Origin: a virus
Lineage: Duplodnaviria; Caudoviricetes
Length of the DNA: 57,122 nt
Strand: one strand, 5' to 3'
IMG/VR virus record: IMGVR_UViG_3300005537_000315
Location: 1-57,122 of that record
The notes beneath the pieces are model-generated. The model was given only the letters and a program-made list of their open reading frames with translations, did not search any database and was not told the DNA's origin. The position numbers were made by a program, and so were the translations under genes. Shown here piece after piece: positions 26,904 through 47,674 of the stretch (positions are counted from its first letter, which is position 1; each line of letters opens with the position of its first letter).

Positions 26904-27405
26904 GCTGCCTACCTTTCGAGTAGGCCACCTAGCTCCCCTTCACCTTCGCAGGTCGTTTCTAAGGCAGTGATAACGGCTCGGTCGAACCCTTTGCCCTGAT
27001 TCACGCTGGCTCACAGCCCGTGTTCCCATTGTGACGACTGTGCATTTCTGCCTTTTGCGTCACGGGTAACGTTTTCTCGGGTGACATGCCTCTGCGCTCA
27101 GTCGCCGTGGTTCTCTACTACTTCCGACGAACTCACATCGAGTGTGAGCGCTTGCCGGAAAATCGGTTTTGGTGAGTAGCCCGAGGTAGGCGCGGATGAG
27201 TCGCCTCGTTCTCAGTGTTATGCTCCCCCCGCCAGGATTCGAACCTAGGTCTTCCGCGTAGTGTTTGCAAGTGTCTAGGGCACTTTGGTGAAGACCTAGA
27301 AGCTTCACCGCATCACGTACGGACGTTCTAAACCGCTAAACTACGGGGGGCCAGTTTGAATGGCTCCCTAACACTCCTGAGCCACTCACCAAAACCAATT
27401 TACAA
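26900..27405 (-). ncRNA. candidate large structured RNA containing a tRNA-like domain (27224-27350)
   Basis: 7-bp acceptor stem, D arm, TTCGAAT T-loop, 23-bp enclosing helix, many further hairpins, no credible ORF. Confidence 0.7.
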
Positions 27406-35809: not shown

Positions 35810-35839
35810 TTGACAAGTCGCCATCTTTCGTAGTAAGAT
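35810..35839 (+). promoter_or_regulatory. promoter of the tRNA array
   Basis: TTGACA-18-TAAGAT. Confidence 0.7.
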
Positions 35840-35851
35840 GTTTGTGTCTAC

Positions 35852-35928
35852 GGCGGATGAGGCGAAACAGGTGACGCGCTCGACTGTGAATCGGGCTAGA
35901 GTGGGTTCGAGTCCCATCGTCCGCCCCA
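35852..35928 (+). tRNA. tRNA-His(GTG)
   Basis: Cloverleaf, G-1, CCA. Confidence 0.92.
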
Positions 35929-35949
35929 AAACATTTTTGAAGAAAGCTC

Positions 35950-35978
35950 TTGACAGAATTCCAAATCCATGATAGGCT
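35950..35978 (+). promoter_or_regulatory. second promoter in the array
   Basis: TTGACA-17-TAGGCT. Confidence 0.65.
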
Positions 35979-36001
35979 TCTTTTGAGAGTGAGGGCTGCT
36001 C

Positions 36002-36148
36002 ATGAAAAAGATTGCAGTCACGGATTCGTTGAAAGACCTGAAGTTGAAGGTCGGTGATAAAGTGGAGTTGTTCAAGAGGGTCTGGCAGTACGGCGAAACG
36101 ACCGATAAGAACGGCAAGGTCTCATCGCGCTATCTCGACCCGCTCTAA
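36002..36148 (+). CDS. small hypothetical protein
   Basis: GAGG RBS, MKKIAVTDSLKDLKLKVGD. Confidence 0.5.
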   Translation: MKKIAVTDSLKDLKLKVGDKVELFKRVWQYGETTDKNGKVSSRYLDPL

Positions 36149-36215
36149 AGTTTTTACGAGTTCTCAACTGGCGGCCCTTGCTGGAGGTTTAAATCCTTCA
36201 ACCCCGACCAATTTT

Positions 36216-36353
36216 ATGATTTGTCAACGTTGTCATCAAGAAAAAGCAACAGTCGTGCCTCGTCTCAACCCGTACGATGAAGATGTACGTGGGGAACAGA
36301 ACGAAGAGATTCTTTGCGACGGATGCTACGACGCGTTGTGTGACGAGATTTAA
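36216..36353 (+). CDS. small zinc-finger protein
   Basis: CQRC...CDGC. Confidence 0.55.
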   Translation: MICQRCHQEKATVVPRLNPYDEDVRGEQNEEILCDGCYDALCDEI

Positions 36354-36354
36354 T

Positions 36355-36439
36355 CCGCTGCTGGTGGAACGGCAGACACGTCAGTCTTAGAAACTGATGC
36401 CCTTGTGGCGTGGGAGTTCGAATCTCTCGCGGCGGACCA
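36355..36439 (+). tRNA. tRNA-Leu(TAG)
   Basis: Cloverleaf with V arm, CCA. Confidence 0.92.
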
Positions 36440-36445
36440 AGTTTT

Positions 36446-36531
36446 GCGCGTGTGGCGGAATGGCATACGCAGGGGACTTAAAACCCCCGGCCCGAAAGGG
36501 ATTGTGAGTTCGACTCTCGCCTAGCGCACCA
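36446..36531 (+). tRNA. tRNA-Leu(TAA)
   Basis: Cloverleaf, two acceptor mismatches. Confidence 0.88.
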
Positions 36532-36625
36532 AGTTTTACGAGCGTGATTGGCAGACGTGCCAGTCCTCGGCCATCGACGGATGGTTTGAGTTTAAGCCCA
36601 GCACGCAACACTGGCTGGCAGATCA

Positions 36626-36724
36626 GACGGAGACCTTGGTTCGAATCCAAGTTGGTTCAATGAGCGTGGTCGGCCTTGCATGAGGCGCGTCTCGAACCTG
36701 TCGTCTAGAGGATAGGACGCCGTC
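36626..36724 (+). ncRNA. circularly permuted tRNA-like RNA (YrlA-like topology)
   Basis: T arm precedes D arm, and GACGG/CCGTC closes the structure. Confidence 0.7.
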
Positions 36725-36732
36725 AAAAATTT

Positions 36733-36807
36733 AGCCCTGTCGTTCAACGGACAGGACACACGGCTTCTACCCGTGTAATCTCGGTTCGAATCCGAGTGGG
36801 GCTACCA
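36733..36807 (+). tRNA. tRNA-Arg(TCT)
   Basis: Cloverleaf, CCA. Confidence 0.92.
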
Positions 36808-36968
36808 ATCTTCCCGTGTCGTGGGATACGTCGGCACATATCATGATTCGCTACGCGTTGTTCCGTGGCGAGAGGAAACAGACTTTCTCGATCCGTCTCT
36901 TTGGAATCGCATATACGGATCGAACGACGCGATACGGCAACACGAAGAGCGCGTCGTTGGTTTTAAGT

Positions 36969-37043
36969 GGACTGTTCGTTCAACGGATAGGATAGTGGTC
37001 TACGAAACCACGGATAGAGGTTCGAATCCTCTACGGTCTACCA
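36969..37043 (+). tRNA. tRNA-Arg(ACG)
   Basis: Cloverleaf, CCA. Confidence 0.92.
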
Positions 37044-37049
37044 GATTTT

Positions 37050-37124
37050 GCACCTGTCGTTCAATGTACAGGACTCGGCCCTCCGAAGGCCGTGATCTGG
37101 GTTAGATTCCCAGTGGGTGCTCCA
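37050..37124 (+). tRNA. tRNA-Arg(CCG)
   Basis: Cloverleaf, variant T-loop TTAGATT. Confidence 0.88.
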
Positions 37125-37127
37125 GGT

Positions 37128-37189
37128 TTGATGCATCAAGGGAAGGGATGCCCTAACACCCCAACCCACTCTTTAGGGAGAGTGAGATG
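37128..37189 (+). promoter_or_regulatory. kissing-loop leader of HNH gene (copy 1)
   Basis: Loops CCCTAA/TTAGGG, SD inside hairpin 2. Confidence 0.8.
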
Positions 37190-37567
37190 AAAATCTGTAG
37201 TCGATGTATTTTGTCGAAACACGAGAAAGATTTTTATACCCAAAGCGGCAGGTCGACAAAAATGTCTTGGTGTAAGGCCTGTTTGAAAGATTACAGGTCT
37301 GAGACTCAACTCGCTAATAAAAAGAGGGCAGTTGAATTATTGGGTGGGAAATGCGTTCGCTGTGGGTATTCGAAATGTTTGGGTGCCTTAGAATTTCATC
37401 ACGTAAACCCAGCAGACAAGTCCACGTACACGGGACTTAAAAACAGAAGTTGGAACACGATATCGGAAGAAATTAAAAAGTGTATTCTTCTATGTGCTAA
37501 TTGTCACAGAGAAGAGGAAGAGAAATTAAGGCCACGTAGCGCAGCGGACAGCGCAACTCTTTCCTAA
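37187..37567 (+). CDS. HNH endonuclease
   Basis: CVRCGY...LEFHH...EEIKKCILLCANCHRE. Confidence 0.9.
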   Translation: MKICSRCILSKHEKDFYTQSGRSTKMSWCKACLKDYRSETQLANKKRAVELLGGKCVRCGYSKCLGALEFHHVNPADKSTYTGLKNRSWNTISEEIKKCILLCANCHREEEEKLRPRSAADSATLS

Positions 37568-37605
37568 AGAGTGGGTCGTGAGTTCGAATCTCACCGAGGC
37601 CTCCA
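37530..37605 (+). tRNA. tRNA-Arg(CCT)
   Basis: Cloverleaf, overlapped by the HNH 3' end. Confidence 0.9.
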
Positions 37606-37718
37606 GATTTGAGCGGTGGGTAGCGAGTGGCTAACCAGTGATTCGGGCCGGAGTAGGGCGTGAAACTCGCCAACGTGTCGCGCAGCGGACAAGGCTCAGG
37701 CGCTCAAAAAGTTTACGT

Positions 37719-37805
37719 GCCTTTGTGGTGGAACAGGCAGACGCGCCGCACTCAAAACGCGGTGGGCTAACGCCCGTGTCAGTTCGAGTCTGACCAGAGG
37801 CACCA
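37719..37805 (+). tRNA. tRNA-Leu(CAA)
   Basis: Cloverleaf with V arm, CCA. Confidence 0.92.
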
Positions 37806-37811
37806 AAGTTT

Positions 37812-37886
37812 GCACAGATCGACAAGTGGCTAAGTCAATCGTCTGCAAAACGATTACCGTGAGTTCGAATCTCACTCTGTGCTCCA
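37812..37886 (+). tRNA. tRNA-Cys(GCA)
   Basis: Cloverleaf, U73, CCA. Confidence 0.92.
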
Positions 37887-37888
37887 AG

Positions 37889-38209
37889 TTGGTTGTCCAG
37901 ATGTTCGCGAAGGTCCGATCCCTTCGAGGAAGTTCAGGACACGAGTCAACACCGTGCCGTGGAAGTTGCGGGACGCGTAAGCGTACGGGTAAGCCTCGGT
38001 AGTGGACTGGGTAACGCACTCGAAAGAGTCGAGCACCAGCACCACTCATTGGAGCCGAGACAATCCACACGAGTGCAACTGCAAATAGGCGCAGAGGACT
38101 TTGTTGGCGTTCAGTGACAGCGCGGGTAGCAGGCTTCGCCTTCGGGCGACTAGAGAGGAATGAACGTCACCGCGTAAGCGGAAACAGAATCCTGGCTACG
38201 GACGACCAA
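37889..38209 (+). ncRNA. rnpB: RNase P RNA (bacterial type)
   Basis: P1 GGTTGTCC/GGACGACC, P2 ATGTTC/GAACGT, P3 GAAGG/CCTTC. CR-I GAGGAAGTTCAGGA pairs with CR-V ACAGAATCCTGGCTA to form P4 with a bulged U. Also GTGCAACTGCAAATAGG and AGAGGAATGA. Confidence 0.9.
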
Positions 38210-38210
38210 A

Positions 38211-38582
38211 GTGATGGGCAAGAAAGAAGATCAAGCTAAGTGGTATAGAAACCACCGAGAAAAGCACATGGAAAACTGTGCTGCTCGAAAAGCAGAACAG
38301 ATTGTTCGAAATCAGCAAATGATTATCGACTATTTGTTGCAGCATCCTTGCCTCGATTGTGGTGAAACAGATATAATGGTTCTTCAATTTGACCACGTTC
38401 GCGGAGAGAAGAGAGACGACATGAGTCGTTTGCTTTCGTTCTCAGAGAAAACGGTTCGTGAAGAAATTGAGAAATGTGAAGTACGTTGTGCTAATTGTCA
38501 TCAAAGAAAGACGGCAGAACGAAAACAAAGCTATAAGGTTCTATGGGTCGCAGGTGTTAGCGGCAACATTCCTCCCTCTTAA
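38211..38582 (+). CDS. HNH endonuclease
   Basis: HPCLDCGE...LQFDHVRG...EEIEKCEVRCANCH. Confidence 0.9.
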   Translation: MMGKKEDQAKWYRNHREKHMENCAARKAEQIVRNQQMIIDYLLQHPCLDCGETDIMVLQFDHVRGEKRDDMSRLLSFSEKTVREEIEKCEVRCANCHQRKTAERKQSYKVLWVAGVSGNIPPS

Positions 38583-38620
38583 GGAGCGAGTTCCGAGTTC
38601 AAGTCTCGGGCAACCCACCA
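38545..38620 (+). tRNA. tRNA-Lys(CTT)
   Basis: Cloverleaf, atypical positions 8-9, overlapped by HNH. Confidence 0.82.
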
Positions 38621-38623
38621 AGT

Positions 38624-38672
38624 TTTGTCAACTTATAGGTTGACGTTTGACAACTGTTTGTCAACTTATAAG
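38624..38672. repeat. TTTGTCAACTTATA direct/inverted mini-repeat spacer
   Basis: Two direct copies plus inverted GTTGAC and TTGACAA. Confidence 0.75.
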
Positions 38673-38680
38673 TGTACAGT

Positions 38681-38755
38681 GGGCTGCGGATGCGAGCGGC
38701 AGCAATGGGGCCTTTTAAGCCCAATGTCCGAGTTCGAGCCTCGGGCGGCCCACCA
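38681..38755 (+). tRNA. tRNA-Lys(TTT)
   Basis: Cloverleaf, atypical D region. Confidence 0.82.
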
Positions 38756-38763
38756 AAAGTTTT

Positions 38764-38839
38764 AGCCGACTAGCAAACTGGTCGTATGCGCCTCTCCTAC
38801 AAAGAGGTGGGCACGGTTCGATTCCGTGGTTGGCTACCA
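38764..38839 (+). tRNA. tRNA-Val(TAC)
   Basis: Cloverleaf, C at position 33. Confidence 0.88.
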
Positions 38840-38929
38840 AGTTCTGTGGGAAGAGTGACGGGATGTCCCAGATCGTATGCTGGGGTGCTGCCCCGTAATG
38901 GGTAACCATCCCCCGTCTTCTCAGCCTTT

Positions 38930-39019
38930 AGTCGGTAGCATGGGTATGCAGCGCGGCCTTATAAACCGCGAGCACCCGATTAGTGCGCCGAGTCGGTTCG
39001 AGTCCGACACCGACTACCA
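38930..39019 (+). tRNA. non-canonical tRNA with TAT anticodon (Ile?) and long V arm
   Basis: AGTCGGT/ACCGACT acceptor, tiny D arm, CTTATAA loop, GCAC/GTGC V arm, CCA. Confidence 0.75.
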
Positions 39020-39026
39020 AGTTTGT

Positions 39027-39100
39027 GGGGTTATCGTTTAGTGGCAGGACGCTCGGTTCTCAGCCGAATAGCCGGGGTTCGAATCCCCGTAGCCCTACCA
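39027..39100 (+). tRNA. tRNA-Glu(CTC)
   Basis: Cloverleaf, CCA. Confidence 0.9.
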
Positions 39101-39109
39101 AGTTTCAGC

Positions 39110-39185
39110 GGAGTTATCAGCTAGCGGCCTAGGCTGCCACCCTTTCAAGGTGGTCACATCGGTTCGAATCCGATTAGCTCTGCCA
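39110..39185 (+). tRNA. tRNA-Glu(TTC)
   Basis: Cloverleaf, CCA. Confidence 0.92.
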
Positions 39186-39200
39186 ATTTTAGGAGTGAAC

Positions 39201-39296
39201 ATGAGCGGACAGCTTGCAGTTATTTTCGGAGCGATTGCCGCAGCGGTGGCACTCGTGGTATACTTGCTGAACAAGTACGTGACGAAGAGCAAGTAA
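39201..39296 (+). CDS. small single-pass membrane peptide
   Basis: AGGAG RBS, MSGQLAVIFGAIAAAVALVVYLLNKYVTKSK. Confidence 0.55.
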   Translation: MSGQLAVIFGAIAAAVALVVYLLNKYVTKSK

Positions 39297-39452
39297 TGAG
39301 TTTTCAAGATTGGTTAGAGAAGCATCCGAAGATTCAAAACGTTGTTGAGTTTTTTGTTTTCATCGCGGAAGTGACCGCGTCGCCGTTCATCGACTTGTAT
39401 AATCGAGTCGCCGTGAAGTTCGGCTGGAAGGTCTATCAGTAAAAGTTTTCGT

Positions 39453-39528
39453 GGGCAGTTAGTAGCAACTGGGAAAACGCCTCGCTTGCACCGAGGAGTT
39501 GAGGGTTCGAATCCGTCACCGTCCACCA
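39453..39528 (+). tRNA. tRNA-Ala(TGC)
   Basis: Cloverleaf with G3:U70. Confidence 0.92.
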
Positions 39529-39538
39529 AATTTTATGT

Positions 39539-39612
39539 AGTCGGTTCGTTCAACGGTAGGACCGTTGCCTGATTAGCGACTGATGAGGGTTCGATTCCTT
39601 CACCGACTACCA
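39539..39612 (+). tRNA. tRNA-Ile(GAT)
   Basis: Cloverleaf, U at position 37. Confidence 0.88.
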
Positions 39613-39629
39613 AGTTTTTAGGAGAAGAG

Positions 39630-39830
39630 ATGGCCGCAAATTCAAACATTCCAGCAGTGAACGCAAAGAATCTTGCGCTGTCAAACGATACGGCGCTGGA
39701 TGTGAAAGCGATTGAATTGGAAGATACGGAGATCGTGAAGGCATTGGTGGCTAACCCGAATCGCCCTGACGCTGGAAAGCTGAACGCAAGACGCGGCTCG
39801 ATAGCAACGGCCAAAAAGAATCACGAATAA
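39630..39830 (+). CDS. hypothetical protein
   Basis: AGGAG RBS. Confidence 0.6.
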   Translation: MAANSNIPAVNAKNLALSNDTALDVKAIELEDTEIVKALVANPNRPDAGKLNARRGSIATAKKNHE

Positions 39831-39843
39831 GAAAGATTTTAAT

Positions 39844-39921
39844 TGCGGGTTAGCACTTCTGGTGAAGTCACCTGTCTCATAAGCAGGTCTAGGCTGGGTT
39901 CGATTCCCGCATCCGCAACCA
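39844..39921 (+). tRNA. tRNA-Met(CAT)
   Basis: Cloverleaf, CTCATAA loop. Initiator, elongator or Ile2 identity is unresolved. Confidence 0.85.
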
Positions 39922-40096
39922 TCTTGACACATCGGTTTCGCTGGTGAGACGCTAAGGTCGTCGACGACCAAGCTGGCGAGACTTTATCGGTTGAAGCGCG
40001 GGTTGCTTATAACAATCTGGGCATTCATAGCCTGACCAGCCCTCATTGAAAAGGCGTTCGGTTCGAAACGTTTTCCTTGGGGAATACAGTTTTTGA

Positions 40097-40170
40097 GCGG
40101 GTGTGGTGTAACGGTAGCACCTCATTATTCCAAGTTGAGTGTCGGGGTTCGAGTCCCCGTACCCGCTCCA
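40097..40170 (+). tRNA. tRNA-Gly(TCC)
   Basis: GCGGG acceptor, U73, weak anticodon stem. Confidence 0.85.
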
Positions 40171-40257
40171 AGTTCGAACGCACACGTTCCTTGCCGTCGT
40201 ACGGCGGTTGTGTGGTAACCAGTTGAAGAGGACGATAACACTGGTGTAAATTTCTGA

Positions 40258-40331
40258 GCGAGTTTGGCGTAGTGGTAGCGTGGAACCTTGCCAAGGTTCA
40301 GGCGCGGTTTCGATTACCGCAATTCGCTCCA
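40258..40331 (+). tRNA. tRNA-Gly(GCC)
   Basis: Cloverleaf, CCA. Confidence 0.92.
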
Positions 40332-40339
40332 AGTTTTGA

Positions 40340-40415
40340 GCATGGTTCGTCTAGCGGTTTAGGACATCCGGCTTGTACCCGGAGAACGTAAGTTCGAATC
40401 TTACACTTTGCTCCA
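40340..40415 (+). tRNA. tRNA-Thr(TGT)
   Basis: Cloverleaf, CCA. Confidence 0.9.
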
Positions 40416-40423
40416 AGGTTTAT

Positions 40424-40672
40424 ATGCCCAACGAATTTCTTTACTCCATAGCCCATAAGGCTCGTAAAGGCCCAAAGATAACGATGGGCAAAGGCATGCA
40501 GAGAGTTGAAACGCCTGACCCGATGCGCGGCGTGACTGATCCAGCGAAGTTGTTGAAGTCGGACACCCAGCGCATAGATAGGAACGTCGGCACTCCTGAT
40601 TTGATGTGGCAGAGGTCTCCCGCGACAGGGTCTTCGTCCGATGCAGCGGGACTGGAAATAAAAAAGATTTGA
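40424..40672 (+). CDS. hypothetical protein
   Basis: ORF exactly fills the gap between two tRNAs. Confidence 0.55.
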   Translation: MPNEFLYSIAHKARKGPKITMGKGMQRVETPDPMRGVTDPAKLLKSDTQRIDRNVGTPDLMWQRSPATGSSSDAAGLEIKKI

Positions 40673-40746
40673 GCACTGTTGATCTAATGGCATGATGCGG
40701 CCCTCGTAGCGCCGACGCCGTGGTTCGATTCCACGACGGTGCTCCA
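40673..40746 (+). tRNA. tRNA-Thr(CGT)
   Basis: Cloverleaf, CCA. Confidence 0.88.
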
Positions 40747-40753
40747 AGTTTGA

Positions 40754-40827
40754 GCAGGGATGATGTAATGGTAGCCTAGTTCCTTGGTAAGGAACCTGTC
40801 CGGGTTCGAGTCCCGGTTTCTGCTCCA
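40754..40827 (+). tRNA. tRNA-Thr(GGT)
   Basis: Cloverleaf, CCA. Confidence 0.9.
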
Positions 40828-40835
40828 AATTTTAC

Positions 40836-40923
40836 GGAGAGGTTCGGTAGCGGCAAACTAGGCAGGCTGTAACCCTGCCGTCCCTTGCGGACTTCCAAGG
40901 TTCGAGTCCTTGTCTCTCCACCA
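40836..40923 (+). tRNA. tRNA-Tyr(GTA)
   Basis: Cloverleaf with V arm. Confidence 0.92.
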
Positions 40924-41061
40924 GTTTCTACGGGGGTGTGTGAGTAGCTCTCACATCCGTAGCGAGCAGAGTGCGACGCGATCTCGGCAGAGATCGAACG
41001 GCACGTAACGATCTGACTGCACGATGCGGATTGCTGCATCCCCACCGATTTAGTTTTCTGT

Positions 41062-41136
41062 TGTAGGTTCGTCTAACGGTAAGACGGGGCACTGTTAATG
41101 CCTACGATGAAGGTTCGAATCCTTTGCCTACAGCCA
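41062..41136 (+). tRNA. tRNA-Asn(GTT)
   Basis: Cloverleaf, G73. Confidence 0.92.
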
Positions 41137-41145
41137 ATTTTCTTT

Positions 41146-41220
41146 TCACGATTAGCTCCAACGTAGAGCGGCTCCCTGTTAAGGAGAAGGTTCTTGGTTC
41201 AAGTCCAAGATCGTGAGCCA
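41146..41220 (+). tRNA. tRNA-Asn(GTT), second divergent copy
   Basis: Cloverleaf, G73. Confidence 0.9.
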
Positions 41221-41228
41221 TTTTCAGC

Positions 41229-41304
41229 AGGGAAGTCGTATAGCGGCCATTACGTACGTCTCCAAAACGTTAAGACGGGAGTTCGAGTCTCTCCTCCCCT
41301 GCCA
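41229..41304 (+). tRNA. tRNA-Trp(CCA)
   Basis: Cloverleaf, G73. Confidence 0.9.
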
Positions 41305-41306
41305 TT

Positions 41307-41370
41307 TTGAACGTTCAATTGGGTGGGCGACGCCGACACGTCGCCCCTCGCCTTGTCGGAGGCCGAGATG
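41307..41370 (+). promoter_or_regulatory. kissing-loop leader of HNH gene (copy 2)
   Basis: Loops CCGACA/TGTCGG. Confidence 0.8.
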
Positions 41371-41793
41371 AACCTGTGTCAAGTAGAAGGCTGCAATAGA
41401 GAAGTTGGTTTTCATTTAAGAAAGACCTGCTCCCAAGAGCACAAGGCCCTATACAGGCAGCAATTTGACCGTGGGCGATATGCTCGGCTGAGAGATAAAG
41501 TCTTAGAACACTACGGCAAAAAGTGCGTTTGTTGCGGTGAGACTAGAAAAGAATTTTTGGCTCTCGATCATAAAAATGGTGAAGGTCAAAAACATAGAAG
41601 AGAGTTAGGTGGCGGTGCCTTTAGAATGTATCGATGGGCGGTCAGAAACGGCTATCCTGATACATTTCAAATTCTTTGCCATAATTGTAATATGGCACTT
41701 GGATGTTGTGGCTATTGTCCGCATCAAAAAGAAAAGACCGAACAGAGGGCTTCTACAGAAGGCGGTCATTCGGACGGTAGTGCTCTGAACTGA
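41368..41793 (+). CDS. HNH endonuclease
   Basis: CVCCGETRKEFLALDHKNGEG...LCHNCNMALG..GYCPH. Confidence 0.9.
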   Translation: MNLCQVEGCNREVGFHLRKTCSQEHKALYRQQFDRGRYARLRDKVLEHYGKKCVCCGETRKEFLALDHKNGEGQKHRRELGGGAFRMYRWAVRNGYPDTFQILCHNCNMALGCCGYCPHQKEKTEQRASTEGGHSDGSALN

Positions 41794-41814
41794 GCCGTTC
41801 GTAAAGGTGCCCTT

Positions 41815-42651
41815 ATGAGACGTGTGCTGTCTGTGCTTTTAGCGATGGTTCTTTCTGTTGCGCCTGCGTTTGCAAACGTCAAAGATTTGAAAGGCTTTGA
41901 CAAGAAGGTTTACGACGGCGCTCTTGCGTTGTACGCGAGTTCGCACGACCTGGGCATTCGTGATCGTTTTATTTGCACGGTTCAAGTCATCAGTAAAGCT
42001 GGCGACCGAGGCTACTATTTGTTGGGCGCAGGACATTGCACCCCGGCGAATCCCGATTTGCCGAAAGACATGGAGTTCTCAGTCGCCGAAGATATCAACG
42101 GGTCGTTAACTCCCGTGACGTTGCTTCAATCAGCGATGAACGAACCGCTTGATTACGCTGAGTATTATTTGCGCACCGACAAGAAGTATCCAGTCACGCC
42201 GCTCGGAGACGAGGGCGATGCTCGCATCGGCGACCAAACGATTGACGTCAACTTCAGTCTTGCTCTAGGCAAGTTCGCAAGTAACGGTCGCGTCTCTTCT
42301 AAAGTAGCTCAAAGCGGAGAGATGAAAGGGTTTTTCGGCGTCGACGAATTCGATTCTCATGGCGCATCTGGAAGTTCGGTTGTCGACAAGCGCACGAAGA
42401 AAGTCATCGGTATCGTGATCGCTGGTGTGGATGGCGCTACGGTTTCTACCTGGGTCGAGCCGATATCAGTGATTAAGAAAGAGCTAGCAAGGGTGACCTT
42501 GCCTCGTTCAACAAAACCGTACGTTCGTTCGAAGTCCCCAGTATCCGTGCCTAGTGTGGACGACAGCATGCCTAAGCTGCCAGTGGGTACGCCAGAAACG
42601 GCCCCTGCTATCGGCGTGGTGGCTGATCAAAACAAGCACTATGATGAGTGA
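41815..42651 (+). CDS. secreted trypsin-like serine protease
   Basis: Signal peptide ending APAFA, catalytic GAGHC, DYA, HGASGSSV. Confidence 0.82.
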   Translation: MRRVLSVLLAMVLSVAPAFANVKDLKGFDKKVYDGALALYASSHDLGIRDRFICTVQVISKAGDRGYYLLGAGHCTPANPDLPKDMEFSVAEDINGSLTPVTLLQSAMNEPLDYAEYYLRTDKKYPVTPLGDEGDARIGDQTIDVNFSLALGKFASNGRVSSKVAQSGEMKGFFGVDEFDSHGASGSSVVDKRTKKVIGIVIAGVDGATVSTWVEPISVIKKELARVTLPRSTKPYVRSKSPVSVPSVDDSMPKLPVGTPETAPAIGVVADQNKHYDE

Positions 42652-42835
42652 TTATCGTGAGATGAGAAAGTGGCGCAGGCTAGCGATTGCGTCCTTCTTA
42701 GCGTTCTTGTTTACTGGCTTGGTCAGCATGTGGCAGAATCATGTGATTCAAGTTCAACGCAAACAGATATTCGAACTTTGGGACGCGTATCAAAGTGTTG
42801 CGCACGGTTGTGGCGACAAGAATTTTGTTCTATAA
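42644..42835 (+). CDS. small membrane protein
   Basis: Hydrophobic segment LAIASFLAFLFTGLV, start approximate. Confidence 0.5.
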   Translation: MSDYREMRKWRRLAIASFLAFLFTGLVSMWQNHVIQVQRKQIFELWDAYQSVAHGCGDKNFVL

Positions 42836-42839
42836 TTTT

Positions 42840-42926
42840 GGATCAGTGGCGAAATTGGTAGACGCAATAGTTTGCTAAACTATCAACCGAAAGGTTGTGG
42901 GGGTTCGAGTCCCTCCTGATCCGCCA
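42840..42926 (+). tRNA. tRNA-Ser(GCT)
   Basis: Cloverleaf with V arm. Confidence 0.92.
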
Positions 42927-42930
42927 GTTT

Positions 42931-43021
42931 GGAGAGCAGCACTGAATGGTCGGTACTCGTCTCGAAAACGATGACGCGTTCGAAAGGGCGCGACAGAGTT
43001 CGATTCTCTGGCTCTCCTCCA
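42931..43021 (+). tRNA. tRNA-Ser(CGA)
   Basis: Cloverleaf with long V arm, atypical D region. Confidence 0.85.
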
Positions 43022-43032
43022 GTTTTGTGTTA

Positions 43033-43123
43033 GGAAGGCGGCGAGCGATGGCGTTCATCCGTCTTGAAAACGGCGACACGTTCGAGAGGGCGTGACTCGG
43101 TTCGATTCCGGGGCCTTCCTCCA
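43033..43123 (+). tRNA. tRNA-Ser(TGA)
   Basis: Cloverleaf with long V arm, atypical D region. Confidence 0.85.
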
Positions 43124-43124
43124 T

Positions 43125-43198
43125 CCTCGCTTGGTGTAGTGGTTGCACTCCTGTTTGAAACACATGAAGTCGTGGTTCGATTCCACGGGCGAGGGCCA
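43125..43198 (+). tRNA. tRNA-Phe(GAA)
   Basis: Cloverleaf, CCA. Confidence 0.88.
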
Positions 43199-43206
43199 TT
43201 TTCTGA

Positions 43207-43270
43207 ACCGTCGATAATCGTCATTAAGGACAACGCGAAAGTGCACGGTGCAACTCCGTCGATGGCTCCA
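43207..43270 (+). ncRNA. 64-nt D-armless tRNA-like RNA
   Basis: CCGTCG/CGATGG acceptor, ACGG-TGCAACT-CCGT T arm, TCCA end. Confidence 0.55.
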
Positions 43271-43279
43271 ATTTTCTGT

Positions 43280-43355
43280 TGGAAGATAGTGTAATTGGTA
43301 GCACGGCTGACTTTGAATCAGTCAGGTGAAAGTTCGAGTCCTTCTCCTCCAACCA
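43280..43355 (+). tRNA. tRNA-Gln(TTG)
   Basis: Cloverleaf, CCA. Confidence 0.9.
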
Positions 43356-43360
43356 AGTTT

Positions 43361-43609
43361 ATGCAGAAATCACATGAAGTAGCAAAGCAATTGTTGCAGT
43401 CATTGAAGAACGTGCCTTGCAAGGATTGCGGAATACAATACCCGCACTACGTGATGGAATTTGATCACCTTATTCCACGCAACGGCAGTCTAACGATTGC
43501 AGCCCTTTCTCAGAAGGTCGGTCTGAAAAAACTTCTTGAATTGGTTTCTCAGTGCGAAGTAGTTTGTGCGAACTGCCACAAAATCCGTACGTATTTTCGT
43601 CGTAAATAA
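43361..43609 (+). CDS. minimal HNH endonuclease
   Basis: PCKDCG..YPHYVMEFDH...CEVVCANCHKIRT. Confidence 0.85.
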   Translation: MQKSHEVAKQLLQSLKNVPCKDCGIQYPHYVMEFDHLIPRNGSLTIAALSQKVGLKKLLELVSQCEVVCANCHKIRTYFRRK

Positions 43610-43714
43610 GTTTTTGCCGCTGATCCGGTAGTCAGTAAGGCTCTGCCTAGGTAACAGCCAGGACTGATGAAAAGTGATCCCTTCGCCCTTGTGGGGGCGG
43701 CAACGTTTTTCTGT

Positions 43715-43789
43715 TGGGATGTCTTTCAATCGGTAGGAAGCGCGGCTCTGAACCGCGTAATAGTGGTTCGAGTCCACTCGCCCCAACCA
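43715..43789 (+). tRNA. tRNA-Gln(CTG)
   Basis: Cloverleaf, CCA. Confidence 0.9.
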
Positions 43790-43806: not shown

Positions 43807-43832
43807 AAACCCCCTCGCAAAGGGGGTTTTGT
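43807..43832 (+). terminator. intrinsic terminator closing the tRNA array
   Basis: AAACCCCCT-CGCAA-AGGGGGTTTT. Confidence 0.85.
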
Positions 43833-46432: not shown

Positions 46433-47045
46433 ACTGGTACAAATCAAATCCGTTATTGGTGTGCAGAGATGGGCGCTGGCCTTCGTCGGCGGTAAAGATA
46501 CAGGCAATCAGCCGAAGTCGTGTTTCAATTGTCCGTTTCTATACATAAACCAGAAGCGATGCCAGATTCACGGCCCGGACATTGTTATTGATCGAGCCAT
46601 GAAGGACGGAGAAGCCTATACGCCCGTGTGCGTTTACCAGCGTGGTGGGACTCCTCTCGCGGTTGCAGATAGCGAAGTGGTCTATAACGTCAACACGCTA
46701 GGCGACAAGGCGGCGGATCAGACTGGATTGGAATGGGCTAAGAGTCCTACTGGAACCAACTGCGGTGGATTTAAGCAGGGCGCTCCTTGCAAGCATTTCG
46801 TTTCAACAGACGACAAGGGGAAAGACGGCATTTGTCTTCTTATGTCTGAGAAACAAGATGAAGCCAGCGACGCCATGTCGGAGCACAAAGGCCGAGGCGT
46901 CGATTGGGACGACTGCTGTGACGGGCACGAAGGCGAAAACATCTCCTGGCGAGAAGCACAGAAACTCATGCCGTCACACGATAAAGAACAAGAAGAGGAT
47001 TTTGGCGGCGGCTACAAATACCGTCGCGGCGAAAAGAAACCATGA
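46422..47045 (+). CDS. Cys-rich hypothetical protein
   Basis: Two Cys clusters (SCFNCPF...RCQ and NCG...PCKHF...GIC...DCC). Confidence 0.7.
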   Translation: MADKLVQIKSVIGVQRWALAFVGGKDTGNQPKSCFNCPFLYINQKRCQIHGPDIVIDRAMKDGEAYTPVCVYQRGGTPLAVADSEVVYNVNTLGDKAADQTGLEWAKSPTGTNCGGFKQGAPCKHFVSTDDKGKDGICLLMSEKQDEASDAMSEHKGRGVDWDDCCDGHEGENISWREAQKLMPSHDKEQEEDFGGGYKYRRGEKKP

Positions 47046-47674
47046 AGAGGATCGTCGCATTTTTCGTCAGACACGGTGAGACCGATCTGAATGATCCCCC
47101 AGACGGCGGCAAAGAAAGATTTCGCGGCGACGCGGATGTTCTTCTGAACGACAGCGGCAAGAAACAGGCAGAAGCGCTTGTTCCTTTATTCAACGCCAGG
47201 GACTTCAGTGCAGCGTTTCACAGCGGCATGCAAAGGACTGCGCAAACTCTAGAGCCTTTGATGAAGGCCAAGGGAATGGAAGCGCACGAGATCGAGGGCT
47301 TGAACAGTCTTAACACTGGTGACTTCACGGGCATGCCGAAGAGTGAAGAGAACAAAGAAAAACTAGAGTACTACCGAAAGAATCCGAGTGTACGAATCCC
47401 CGGTGGCGAGAGCGTGAATGAGTTTCGAAAGCGAGTTGATCCTCGTTTGATGAGGATTATTCGACTGGGAGAAGAATCGGGTAAGCCGACCATTAGCGCT
47501 ATGCACGGCTCGATCATGAAAGAATTGTCTCGCCTGTTGTGTGGCGGGGATTACAAAGCGGCCAGAGTCGATCCGGGCGGCGTAGTCGCCGTTTATAAAG
47601 ACTCAGACGGCTACAGCGCCGTTCCGATTTTGAGAGAAAGTCTCGTAGACGAAGATGTTGAGCCAGGAAGTTGA
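47042..47674 (+). CDS. histidine phosphatase (phosphoglycerate mutase family)
   Basis: RHGET, R..QT, PGGES, HG motifs. Confidence 0.92.
   Translation: MKRIVAFFVRHGETDLNDPPDGGKERFRGDADVLLNDSGKKQAEALVPLFNARDFSAAFHSGMQRTAQTLEPLMKAKGMEAHEIEGLNSLNTGDFTGMPKSEENKEKLEYYRKNPSVRIPGGESVNEFRKRVDPRLMRIIRLGEESGKPTISAMHGSIMKELSRLLCGGDYKAARVDPGGVVAVYKDSDGYSAVPILRESLVDEDVEPGS

Follow-up and report, generated by a model that had tools for sequence, protein, structure and literature searches.

A phage-borne homologue of bacterial type-A RNase P RNA with a rewritten P4 helix, embedded in a tRNA array, and its relatives in other viral contigs

The window analysed here is the whole of IMG/VR virus record IMGVR_UViG_3300005537_000315, a linear DNA of 57,122 b that CheckV rates as about 54% complete. 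An array of 32 transfer RNA (tRNA) genes, as called by ARAGORN, occupies positions 35853-43789, with all of the genes on the plus strand and all of them (32/32) encoding CCA. Within this array is a 321-nt gene (37889-38209, plus strand) that extends from P1 to P1' of a ribonuclease P (RNase P) RNA-like structure and matches RF00010, the bacterial type-A RNase P RNA. A preliminary description, made from the letters without database searches, had placed this element between tRNA-Cys and an HNH gene, and it is indeed found there: the tRNA-Cys (GCA) gene (37812-37886, plus strand), which has an encoded CCA, ends 2 nt before P1, and an open reading frame (ORF) for an HNH endonuclease (38211-38582, plus strand; phrog_2255, E 5.4e-25) lies directly downstream. 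The contig also contains genes for a DNA helicase, a primase, a DNA polymerase, a large terminase and a portal/adaptor protein, and the RNase P RNA gene is positioned mid-contig, flanked by the phage replication genes and by the terminase and portal genes.

A focused scan of 37800-38300 gave a match to RF00010 (RNaseP_bact_a) at 37889-38213 on the plus strand, with a score of 79.6 bits and an E-value of 1.4e-24. The match spans model positions 1-367 and is untruncated, so the homologue is full length and not a 3' fragment, and a covariance-model search of the whole record returned one RF00010 match only (E 3.8e-26). The RF00010 consensus blocks GAGGAA, GCAA, AAAUAGG, CGGGUAG, AGA.GAAUG and ACAGAA are aligned in the window RNA, and GCAA, then CAAAUAGG and AGAGGAAUGA, occur in the expected order. 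The preliminary description had claimed helices P1, P2, P3 and P4 together with this motif order, and had proposed a covariance-model search as a check; the helices and motifs are all present in the sequence, with 10 of 10 pairs formed in P1, and the search produced the full-length match given above. This match is far beyond chance, yet it is missed by standard annotation. The element at 37889-38209 (plus strand) is a soil-phage homologue of bacterial type-A RNase P RNA, and its identity as such within a phage tRNA operon, as originally proposed, holds because the full-length RF00010 match is joined by phage hallmark genes on the contig, by covariation among relatives and by recurrence in phage contigs.

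Alignment to RF00010 and constrained folding yield helices P1-P5, P7-P11, P15, P16/17 and P18, as well as a GUAA-capped hairpin in J2/4; all of these features are on the plus strand. The 5' strand of P1 (37889-37898) pairs with 38200-38209, and the 5' strand of P2 (37900-37906) pairs with 38162-38168 to form the 7-bp helix GAUGUUC/GAACGUC. P3 (37908-37926) is a hairpin of 6 bp (CGAAGG/CCUUCG) closed by a 7-nt loop, and is followed by conserved region I (CR-I) with the 5' strand of P4, GAGGAAGUUCAGGAC (37926-37940), which is aligned with the RF00010 consensus GAGGAAAGUCCGGgC. A reduced specificity domain is found at 37952-38072. P15, P16 and P17 are positioned at 38079-38132, where J15/16 (AAAUAGG) and L15 (CGGGUAG) are aligned with the consensus and the GGU of L15 lies at 38125-38127. 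P18 is a short hairpin with a UUCG loop (38137-38148), placed by the RF00010 alignment and by constrained folding, and J18/2 (CR-IV; 38149-38162), which contains AGAGAGGAAUG, is aligned with the consensus uAGAugAAUG. Folding, including constrained folding, adds an extra hairpin in J2/4, CCGC-GUAA-GCGG (38170-38181), after which CR-V with the 3' strand of P4, ACAGAAUCCUGGCUA (38184-38198), is aligned with the consensus ACAGAACCCGGCUUA.

P4 is formed by AGU(U)CAGGA with UCCUGGCU, giving 8 bp and a bulged U. Set in register with the RF00010 consensus, the phage helix retains all eight pairs along with its bulged U, and four of the pairs are changed, three of them fully compensated and one converted to U.G. 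The compensatory changes in P4 that had been claimed from the letters are therefore real, in that four of the eight pairs are swapped and all of them still pair. The GAGGAA and ACAGAA sequences flanking P4 are identical to the consensus.

Relatives of the window RNA were recruited from IMG/VR through this helix. The family was defined by the motifs GAGGAAG(U/C)UCAGGAC and ACAGAAUCCUGGCUA on one strand, with P1 closing 0-4 nt after the 3' strand; the window RNA contains both exact motifs, 258 nt apart, and the 10-bp P1. A scan with the exact 5' 17-mer identified 21 loci, 10 of which have both exact P4 strands and three of which (L007, L014 and L016) have a partner strand with one mismatch, and a scan with the 3' strand identified 61 loci. 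Both exact strands were found on one strand, 103-540 nt apart, at 23 loci. Allowing one mismatch in one strand gave 48 IMG/VR loci, which represent at least 42 distinct RNAs of 158-342 nt with a GC content of 33-60%, and in these 48 loci the P4 5' strand is identical or one base off. One P4 pair varies within the family: the window has U.G at this place, 19 loci have C-G and L016 has U-A. Scanning with the most frequent 5' variant brought in 4 new loci with up to 3 mismatches in the partner strand (among the 80 of 97 stretches listed), and a metagenome scan contributed three more relatives. A closing P1 is present in 42 of 42 distinct relatives, 0-4 nt past the 3' strand, and its sequence is different each time.

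Two further members appear to carry large insertions. In L032 (6210-6902, plus strand), on a 482-kb record rated 100% complete, about 540 nt separate the P4 strands, and in L007 (10521-10986, plus strand), with its one 3'-strand mismatch, the separation is about 300 nt; P1 is uncertain in both. At each of these two loci the RNA gene may be interrupted by an inserted element, for example an intron or an ORF.

Among the 21 loci of the 5'-strand scan, only L017 and L019 resemble the window RNA by blastn or nhmmer. They contain a 334-nt RF00010 match of 78.0 bits within a 25-tRNA array, in which tRNA-Ser begins 4 nt after P1. Of 23 related records, 8 are found by RF00010 at E<=1 and 2 reach or pass its gathering score; L031 scores 111.8 bits, and L033, located in a 118.8-kb genome that is complete and has direct terminal repeats, scores 100.2 bits. 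The 158-175-nt forms went undetected in the RF00010 search of the related records, and the 158-nt L010, scanned alone against Rfam, matched no family at E<=10. For L030 (261 nt) the best Rfam match is RNaseP_arch (39.6 bits, E 5.5e-10).

The 158-175-nt class consists of mini forms, found at L010 (9884-10041, plus strand), L016 (1291-1448, minus), L022 (12219-12378, plus), L015 (3963-4129, plus), L003 (457-628, minus), L014 (5433-5604, plus) and L008 (666-840, minus). They comprise only P1-P5 and P15-P16, without a specificity domain and without P18. The contigs that carry these seven forms are AT-rich, five of them being 121-380 kb in length, and the RNAs often lie 2-6 nt from tRNAs on both sides.

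Covariation was examined in two sets of relatives. Five full-size members were aligned with MAFFT, and the type-A structure was written in by hand. In this alignment 83.8% of cells are paired, compared with 33.5-43.0% with the partners slid, and 28 of 67 pairs are compensatory, compared with 3-9 for slid partners; none of 500 shuffles attains these values. By helix, compensation is found in 4/4 pairs of P7, 4/5 of P11, 3/4 of P15 and 3/7 of P2, and 97.1% of the cells of P2 and 100% of those of P3 are paired. RNAalifold, with no structure supplied, predicted P1, P3, P4, P5, P15 and P16 both in the seven mini forms and in fifteen forms of about 200 nt, with P4 appearing in both sets as an 8-bp helix with a bulged U, and 21 of the 32 pairs predicted for the fifteen are compensatory. 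P2 was added to the fifteen-member structure in the sole register that pairs. With this structure 91.2% of cells are paired (29.2-40.4% when slid) and 27 of 39 pairs are compensatory, values again reached by 0 of 500 shuffles; the compensatory pairs include 9/9 in P1, 6/7 in P2, 4/5 in P5, 3/3 in P15 and 3/4 in P16. The architecture of the catalytic domain is complete and is maintained by compensatory change.

A AGAUGAAUG-like J18/2 block is conserved throughout the fifteen members of about 200 nt, and the GGT of L15 is invariant in them; P18 is absent from L017 and from the mini forms. Since MAFFT misaligned P6 (32% paired) and part of P1 in the five-member alignment, P6 was retested sequence by sequence. 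In the window RNA a candidate P6 pseudoknot would pair GUCAACA (37944-37950, plus strand) with UGUUGGC (38101-38107) in the P17 loop. The window, L017, L031 and L033 have candidates that differ in sequence but share one offset in J5/7, each of them weak, with 40-204 of 1000 shuffles equalling it. The shared offset is thus seen in 4 of 8 full-size members, window included, and the candidate of L054 is one position off.

The preliminary description had called the specificity domain divergent, and this is confirmed by the RF00010 alignment, in which the CR-II/CR-III stretch is left unaligned. P7, P8, P9 (with a GUAA loop), P10 and P11 are followed in this domain by a long P12-like hairpin, and P13/P14 are absent. 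The long hairpin and its conserved internal loop UCAUUGGAG occupy the place of the CR-II/CR-III stretch, which in known RNase P RNAs reads the tRNA elbow. The loop 9-mer, at 38046-38054 of the window, belongs to the 3' side of the P12-like hairpin, in the position expected of CR-III; it is also found in L017, L033, L031 and L183, and takes the form CCAUUCGAG or UCAUUCGAG in two relatives. The 9-mer may be a replacement tRNA-recognition module. Two other loci, L182 (204-480, minus strand) and L066 (2778-3113, minus strand), have the rewritten P4 plus CR-II/CR-III-like strings, e.g. ACAGAGACGAGCC and GGGUGAAACGGGC, and seem intermediate, by sequence, between standard type A and the reduced domain of the window RNA. 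A further full-size relative is present at L181 (117-403, plus strand).

The family is strongly associated with tRNA genes. At least two same-strand tRNAs lie within 6 kb of 38 of the 42 distinct members, and the tRNAs within 6 kb of the 42 members number 456 on the same strand and 0 on the opposite strand. A tRNA is abutted within 10 nt by 19 of the 42, with 12 such contacts upstream and 13 downstream. Encoded CCA is all-or-none by lineage, being present in 32/32 tRNAs of the window, 25/25 of L017 and 0/32 of L009. The terminase of the window has only remote kinship to those of cultured phages (identity <=24%), and its lineage is shared by 2 of 30 records, L017 and L033, at 38-39% identity. 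Because only these two records share the terminase lineage, the RNA family crosses phage lineages; the remaining family records include complete genomes of 101-482 kb.

Outside the family, the paired odd-P4 motif gave 0 matches in 185,579 bacterial and archaeal species (one genome each) at spacings of 243-273 and 274-304 nt. The canonical P4 pair was found at 25 viral-contig loci in IMG/VR, 8 of which are in same-strand arrays of 6-26 tRNAs on contigs of 24-369 kb. Seven of these eight array-embedded RNAs score 181-280 bits on RF00010, and the eighth, L158, is under the gathering score; the 17 loci with no array nearby may be host flanks. The standard RNAs at L164, L177, L172, L180, L167 and L162/L169 resemble the window RNA in lying on the same strand as their tRNAs, with 16-42 nt between the P4 motifs and the nearest tRNAs and in arrays of 10-26 tRNAs, but differ from it in having a canonical P4, scores of 181-280 bits and an ordinary type-A structure. 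Array-embedded RNase P RNA genes in IMG/VR viral contigs extend beyond the odd-P4 family, because canonical-P4 type-A RNAs too lie in tRNA arrays of these contigs.

The spacer after tRNA-Cys starts with AGTT, like 12 of the 32 array spacers, and the RNase P RNA is therefore placed like one more tRNA unit. The first tRNA is immediately preceded by a promoter-like site (35810-35839) and the last is closely followed by a terminator-like hairpin (43811-43826), and since such sites are not more numerous than in shuffles (11 vs 7.1+-3.2 and 15 vs 10.5+-3.1, respectively), only their positions at the ends of the array count, as suggestive and weak evidence. The HNH ORF downstream of the RNA is likely to be a homing element that forms no part of the ribozyme; a second HNH ORF (phrog_2255, E 2e-31) is present at 37187-37567. 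Array gaps of 81-426 nt have no Rfam match at gathering score (35929-36354, 37125-37529, 39186-39452, 39613-39843, 40416-40672, 43356-43714 and others), and one of them contains this second HNH ORF. The preliminary description counted 33 tRNAs and ARAGORN finds 32 in the array; a 33rd, tRNA-like gene lies elsewhere, on the minus strand. This gene (27224-27350; RF00005, 46.5 bits) is far from the array, has a 54-nt insertion at the anticodon loop, and is called as Ser(act) by ARAGORN only with the intron option. Two ORFs lie beside or inside the tRNA region, one for a histidine-phosphatase-family protein (47042-47674, plus strand; PF00300, E 4.2e-30) and one for a trypsin-like peptidase (41815-42651, plus strand; PF13365, E 3.4e-09). 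In one soil DNA run, 93% of the words sampled from 37400-38700 are present, though this run may be the source sample and hence is not independent. An attachment-site remnant was considered for the element and rejected, the element being full length with its own P4.

We consider it probable, judging from sequence, that 37889-38209 is a phage gene for an RNase P RNA subunit of type-A descent that works with host RnpA on phage pre-tRNAs. Transcription, folding, catalysis, use of host RnpA, release at tRNA junctions and a benefit to the phage are what we infer for it. The RNase P RNA would be co-transcribed with the 32-tRNA array, and cleavages at the flanking tRNA boundaries would release it. Its folding is predicted to produce the whole catalytic domain (P1-P5, P15-P18 and P4 with the bulged U) along with a reduced specificity domain, and the phage RNA and host RnpA together would cut the 5' leaders of phage pre-tRNAs. 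The GGU of L15 could pair with the CCA encoded by 32 of 32 window tRNAs, which suggests that GGU-CCA pairing may offset the loss of the CR-II/CR-III elbow reader; such an offset would be limited to the window lineage and could not apply in lineages whose tRNAs are without encoded CCA. The benefit would be a capacity to deal with a burst of phage tRNA precursors, independent of the host RNase P RNA.

A broader proposal, which we put forward tentatively and as somewhat short of an even chance, is that many unrelated tailed-phage lineages carry an RNase P ribozyme lineage of their own, marked by the rewritten, compensated P4 that, at the two spacings covered, was unseen among genomes of 185,579 cellular species. 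This lineage would range from near-standard RNAs of 340 nt, via the 321-nt form with a novel specificity domain, to 158-nt RNAs consisting of the catalytic domain only, and with the tRNA array would form a self-contained cassette of substrate and enzyme that does without the RNase P RNA of the host.

Several observations weigh against a working phage RNase P that processes tRNAs with host protein. The 79.6 bits of the window RNA are below the RF00010 gathering score of 100, and a default Rfam scan of the whole window at gathering thresholds reported tRNAs only and is blind to the RNase P RNA because of this shortfall. The single-sequence fold has a z of -1.63, with 7 of 100 shuffles equally stable, so there is no clear excess of stability. 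P4 departs from the consensus at eight nucleotides adjoining the catalytic site, and because family members were recruited through P4 motifs, its near-invariance among them is partly by construction. The ACAGAAA and GUGAAA of the CR-II/CR-III stretch have no aligned counterpart in the window RNA, and P6 complementarity, sought sequence by sequence, was not found in L066, L023 or L067. Encoded CCA is present in 249 of 456 tRNAs overall and so is not general in the family. The absence of rnpA claimed in the preliminary description is upheld: RnpA (PF00825), sought in the window at E<=10, was not found, nor does any of 19 related records, of which 5 are at least 90% complete, encode it, so that the protein partner is assumed. 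Finally, blastn of four RNA forms (window, L033, L010 and L030) against 50,697 GenBank phage records gave no match and no cultured example, and a search of sequencing runs with words from 37400-38700 listed no RNA run that contains them.

Some of these same features would fit an RNase P-derived RNA whose job has changed, either to that of a decoy that captures host RnpA, thereby stopping or redirecting host tRNA maturation, or to that of a ribozyme retargeted to phage mRNA, spacers or host RNAs. In favour of such a change are the rewritten P4, the loss of the CR-II/CR-III substrate-recognition modules and, in the mini forms, of the entire specificity domain, the conservation of the protein-facing blocks J18/2 and J2/4, and the failure to find an rnpA in the window or in the 19 related records. 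We nonetheless regard a changed job as unlikely: the location of 38 of 42 members in same-strand tRNA arrays, many of them abutting tRNAs, points to tRNA substrates; the L15 GGU, which would read the tRNA CCA end, is conserved; and P4 has kept its geometry and bulged U under covariation, which would be needless for a protein sponge.

A ribozyme that processes tRNAs without host RnpA, alone or with an unrecognised phage protein cofactor, is in our judgement quite unlikely. Bacterial RNase P RNAs require a protein in vivo, and no conserved neighbouring protein gene was seen, only tRNAs and HNH genes, in an inspection that did not include a systematic co-occurrence search. Independence from the host protein would nevertheless agree with the 0 of 20 records, window included, that contain a PF00825 protein, and would be favoured by the spread of the family over very different phages, and presumably hosts (GC 33-60%, genomes of 50-500 kb).

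The covariation strongly argues against the two remaining explanations. A relic left by capture of a host rnpB, now without function and decaying as it is carried in the array, could account for the sub-threshold Rfam score, the missing consensus of the specificity domain and the weak single-sequence fold statistic, but it is very unlikely given extensive compensatory change over 15 and 5 sequences, both P4 strands kept across unrelated phages, and 42 of 42 members at full length from P1 to P1'. Bacterial DNA introduced by host contamination, chimeric assembly or an attachment-site fragment is hardly credible, even though IMG/VR contigs can bear host flanks and the 17 of 25 array-free canonical-P4 loci may be such, since the element is mid-contig among phage genes and inside a tRNA array, is full length and no 3' fragment, has a P4 signature with 0 matches in the cellular genomes at the spacings tested, and is represented in the soil DNA run described above, itself possibly the source sample.

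The phage RNase P RNA that we favour has its closest known counterpart in the bacterial type-A RNA (RF00010; Escherichia coli M1 RNA), with which it shares the helix order P1-P2-P3-P4-P5-P7..P11-P15-P16/17-P18-P2'-P4'-P1', the conserved blocks, the bulged U of P4 and the GNRA loop of P9, and with which it may also share P6. Unlike type A, the window RNA is a phage tRNA-array gene with four P4 pairs swapped, CR-II/CR-III and P13/P14 absent, a short UUCG-capped P18, an extra J2/4 hairpin and no rnpA partner gene found. Other RNase P RNAs that have become smaller in nature (organellar forms, archaeal type A RF00373 and Pyrobaculum 'type T') have a lost or reduced specificity domain and have kept the catalytic core. 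Those forms are the sole RNase P RNA of their cell or organelle, whereas the phage RNAs would be accessory and have a bacterial-type L15 and a distinct P4. Engineered 'mini' RNase P RNAs retain roughly the catalytic domain only; the mini forms of the family (P1-P5 and P15-P16) are similar to such constructs, but are natural and conserved, and the window RNA, for its part, keeps a specificity domain.

Theta (HDV-like) ribozymes are reported to lie beside phage tRNAs, with a proposed role in tRNA maturation (PMC10879173). They are small and self-cleaving in cis, whereas the window RNA would, by homology, be a trans-acting RNase P. A 2024 review of RNase P, checked through a term search, names phages only as sources of substrates, and in the open-access PMC and bioRxiv literature no phage- or virus-encoded RNase P RNA was found described, though a report elsewhere is possible. 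What appears to be new is not the RNase P ribozyme family, which is known, but its lineage in phages, together with the rewritten P4, the altered specificity domain and the RNAs of 158 nt.

Annotation with Rfam at the gathering threshold misses the family, with 2 of 23 related records passing. The 158-nt RNAs, if truly RNase P RNAs, would be the smallest of bacterial type known, and the size series from 342 to 158 nt would constitute a natural deletion series for a catalytic core without its specificity domain. The rewritten P4 likewise offers a natural experiment, here on the helix that is best conserved in RNase P. Very small array-embedded RNase P RNAs could also serve in cell-free or synthetic processing of tRNA arrays. 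The gene for RNase P RNA is regarded as part of the core set of cells and organelles, and a family carried by viruses would bring a trans-acting ribozyme into the range of translation-related functions that phages supply.

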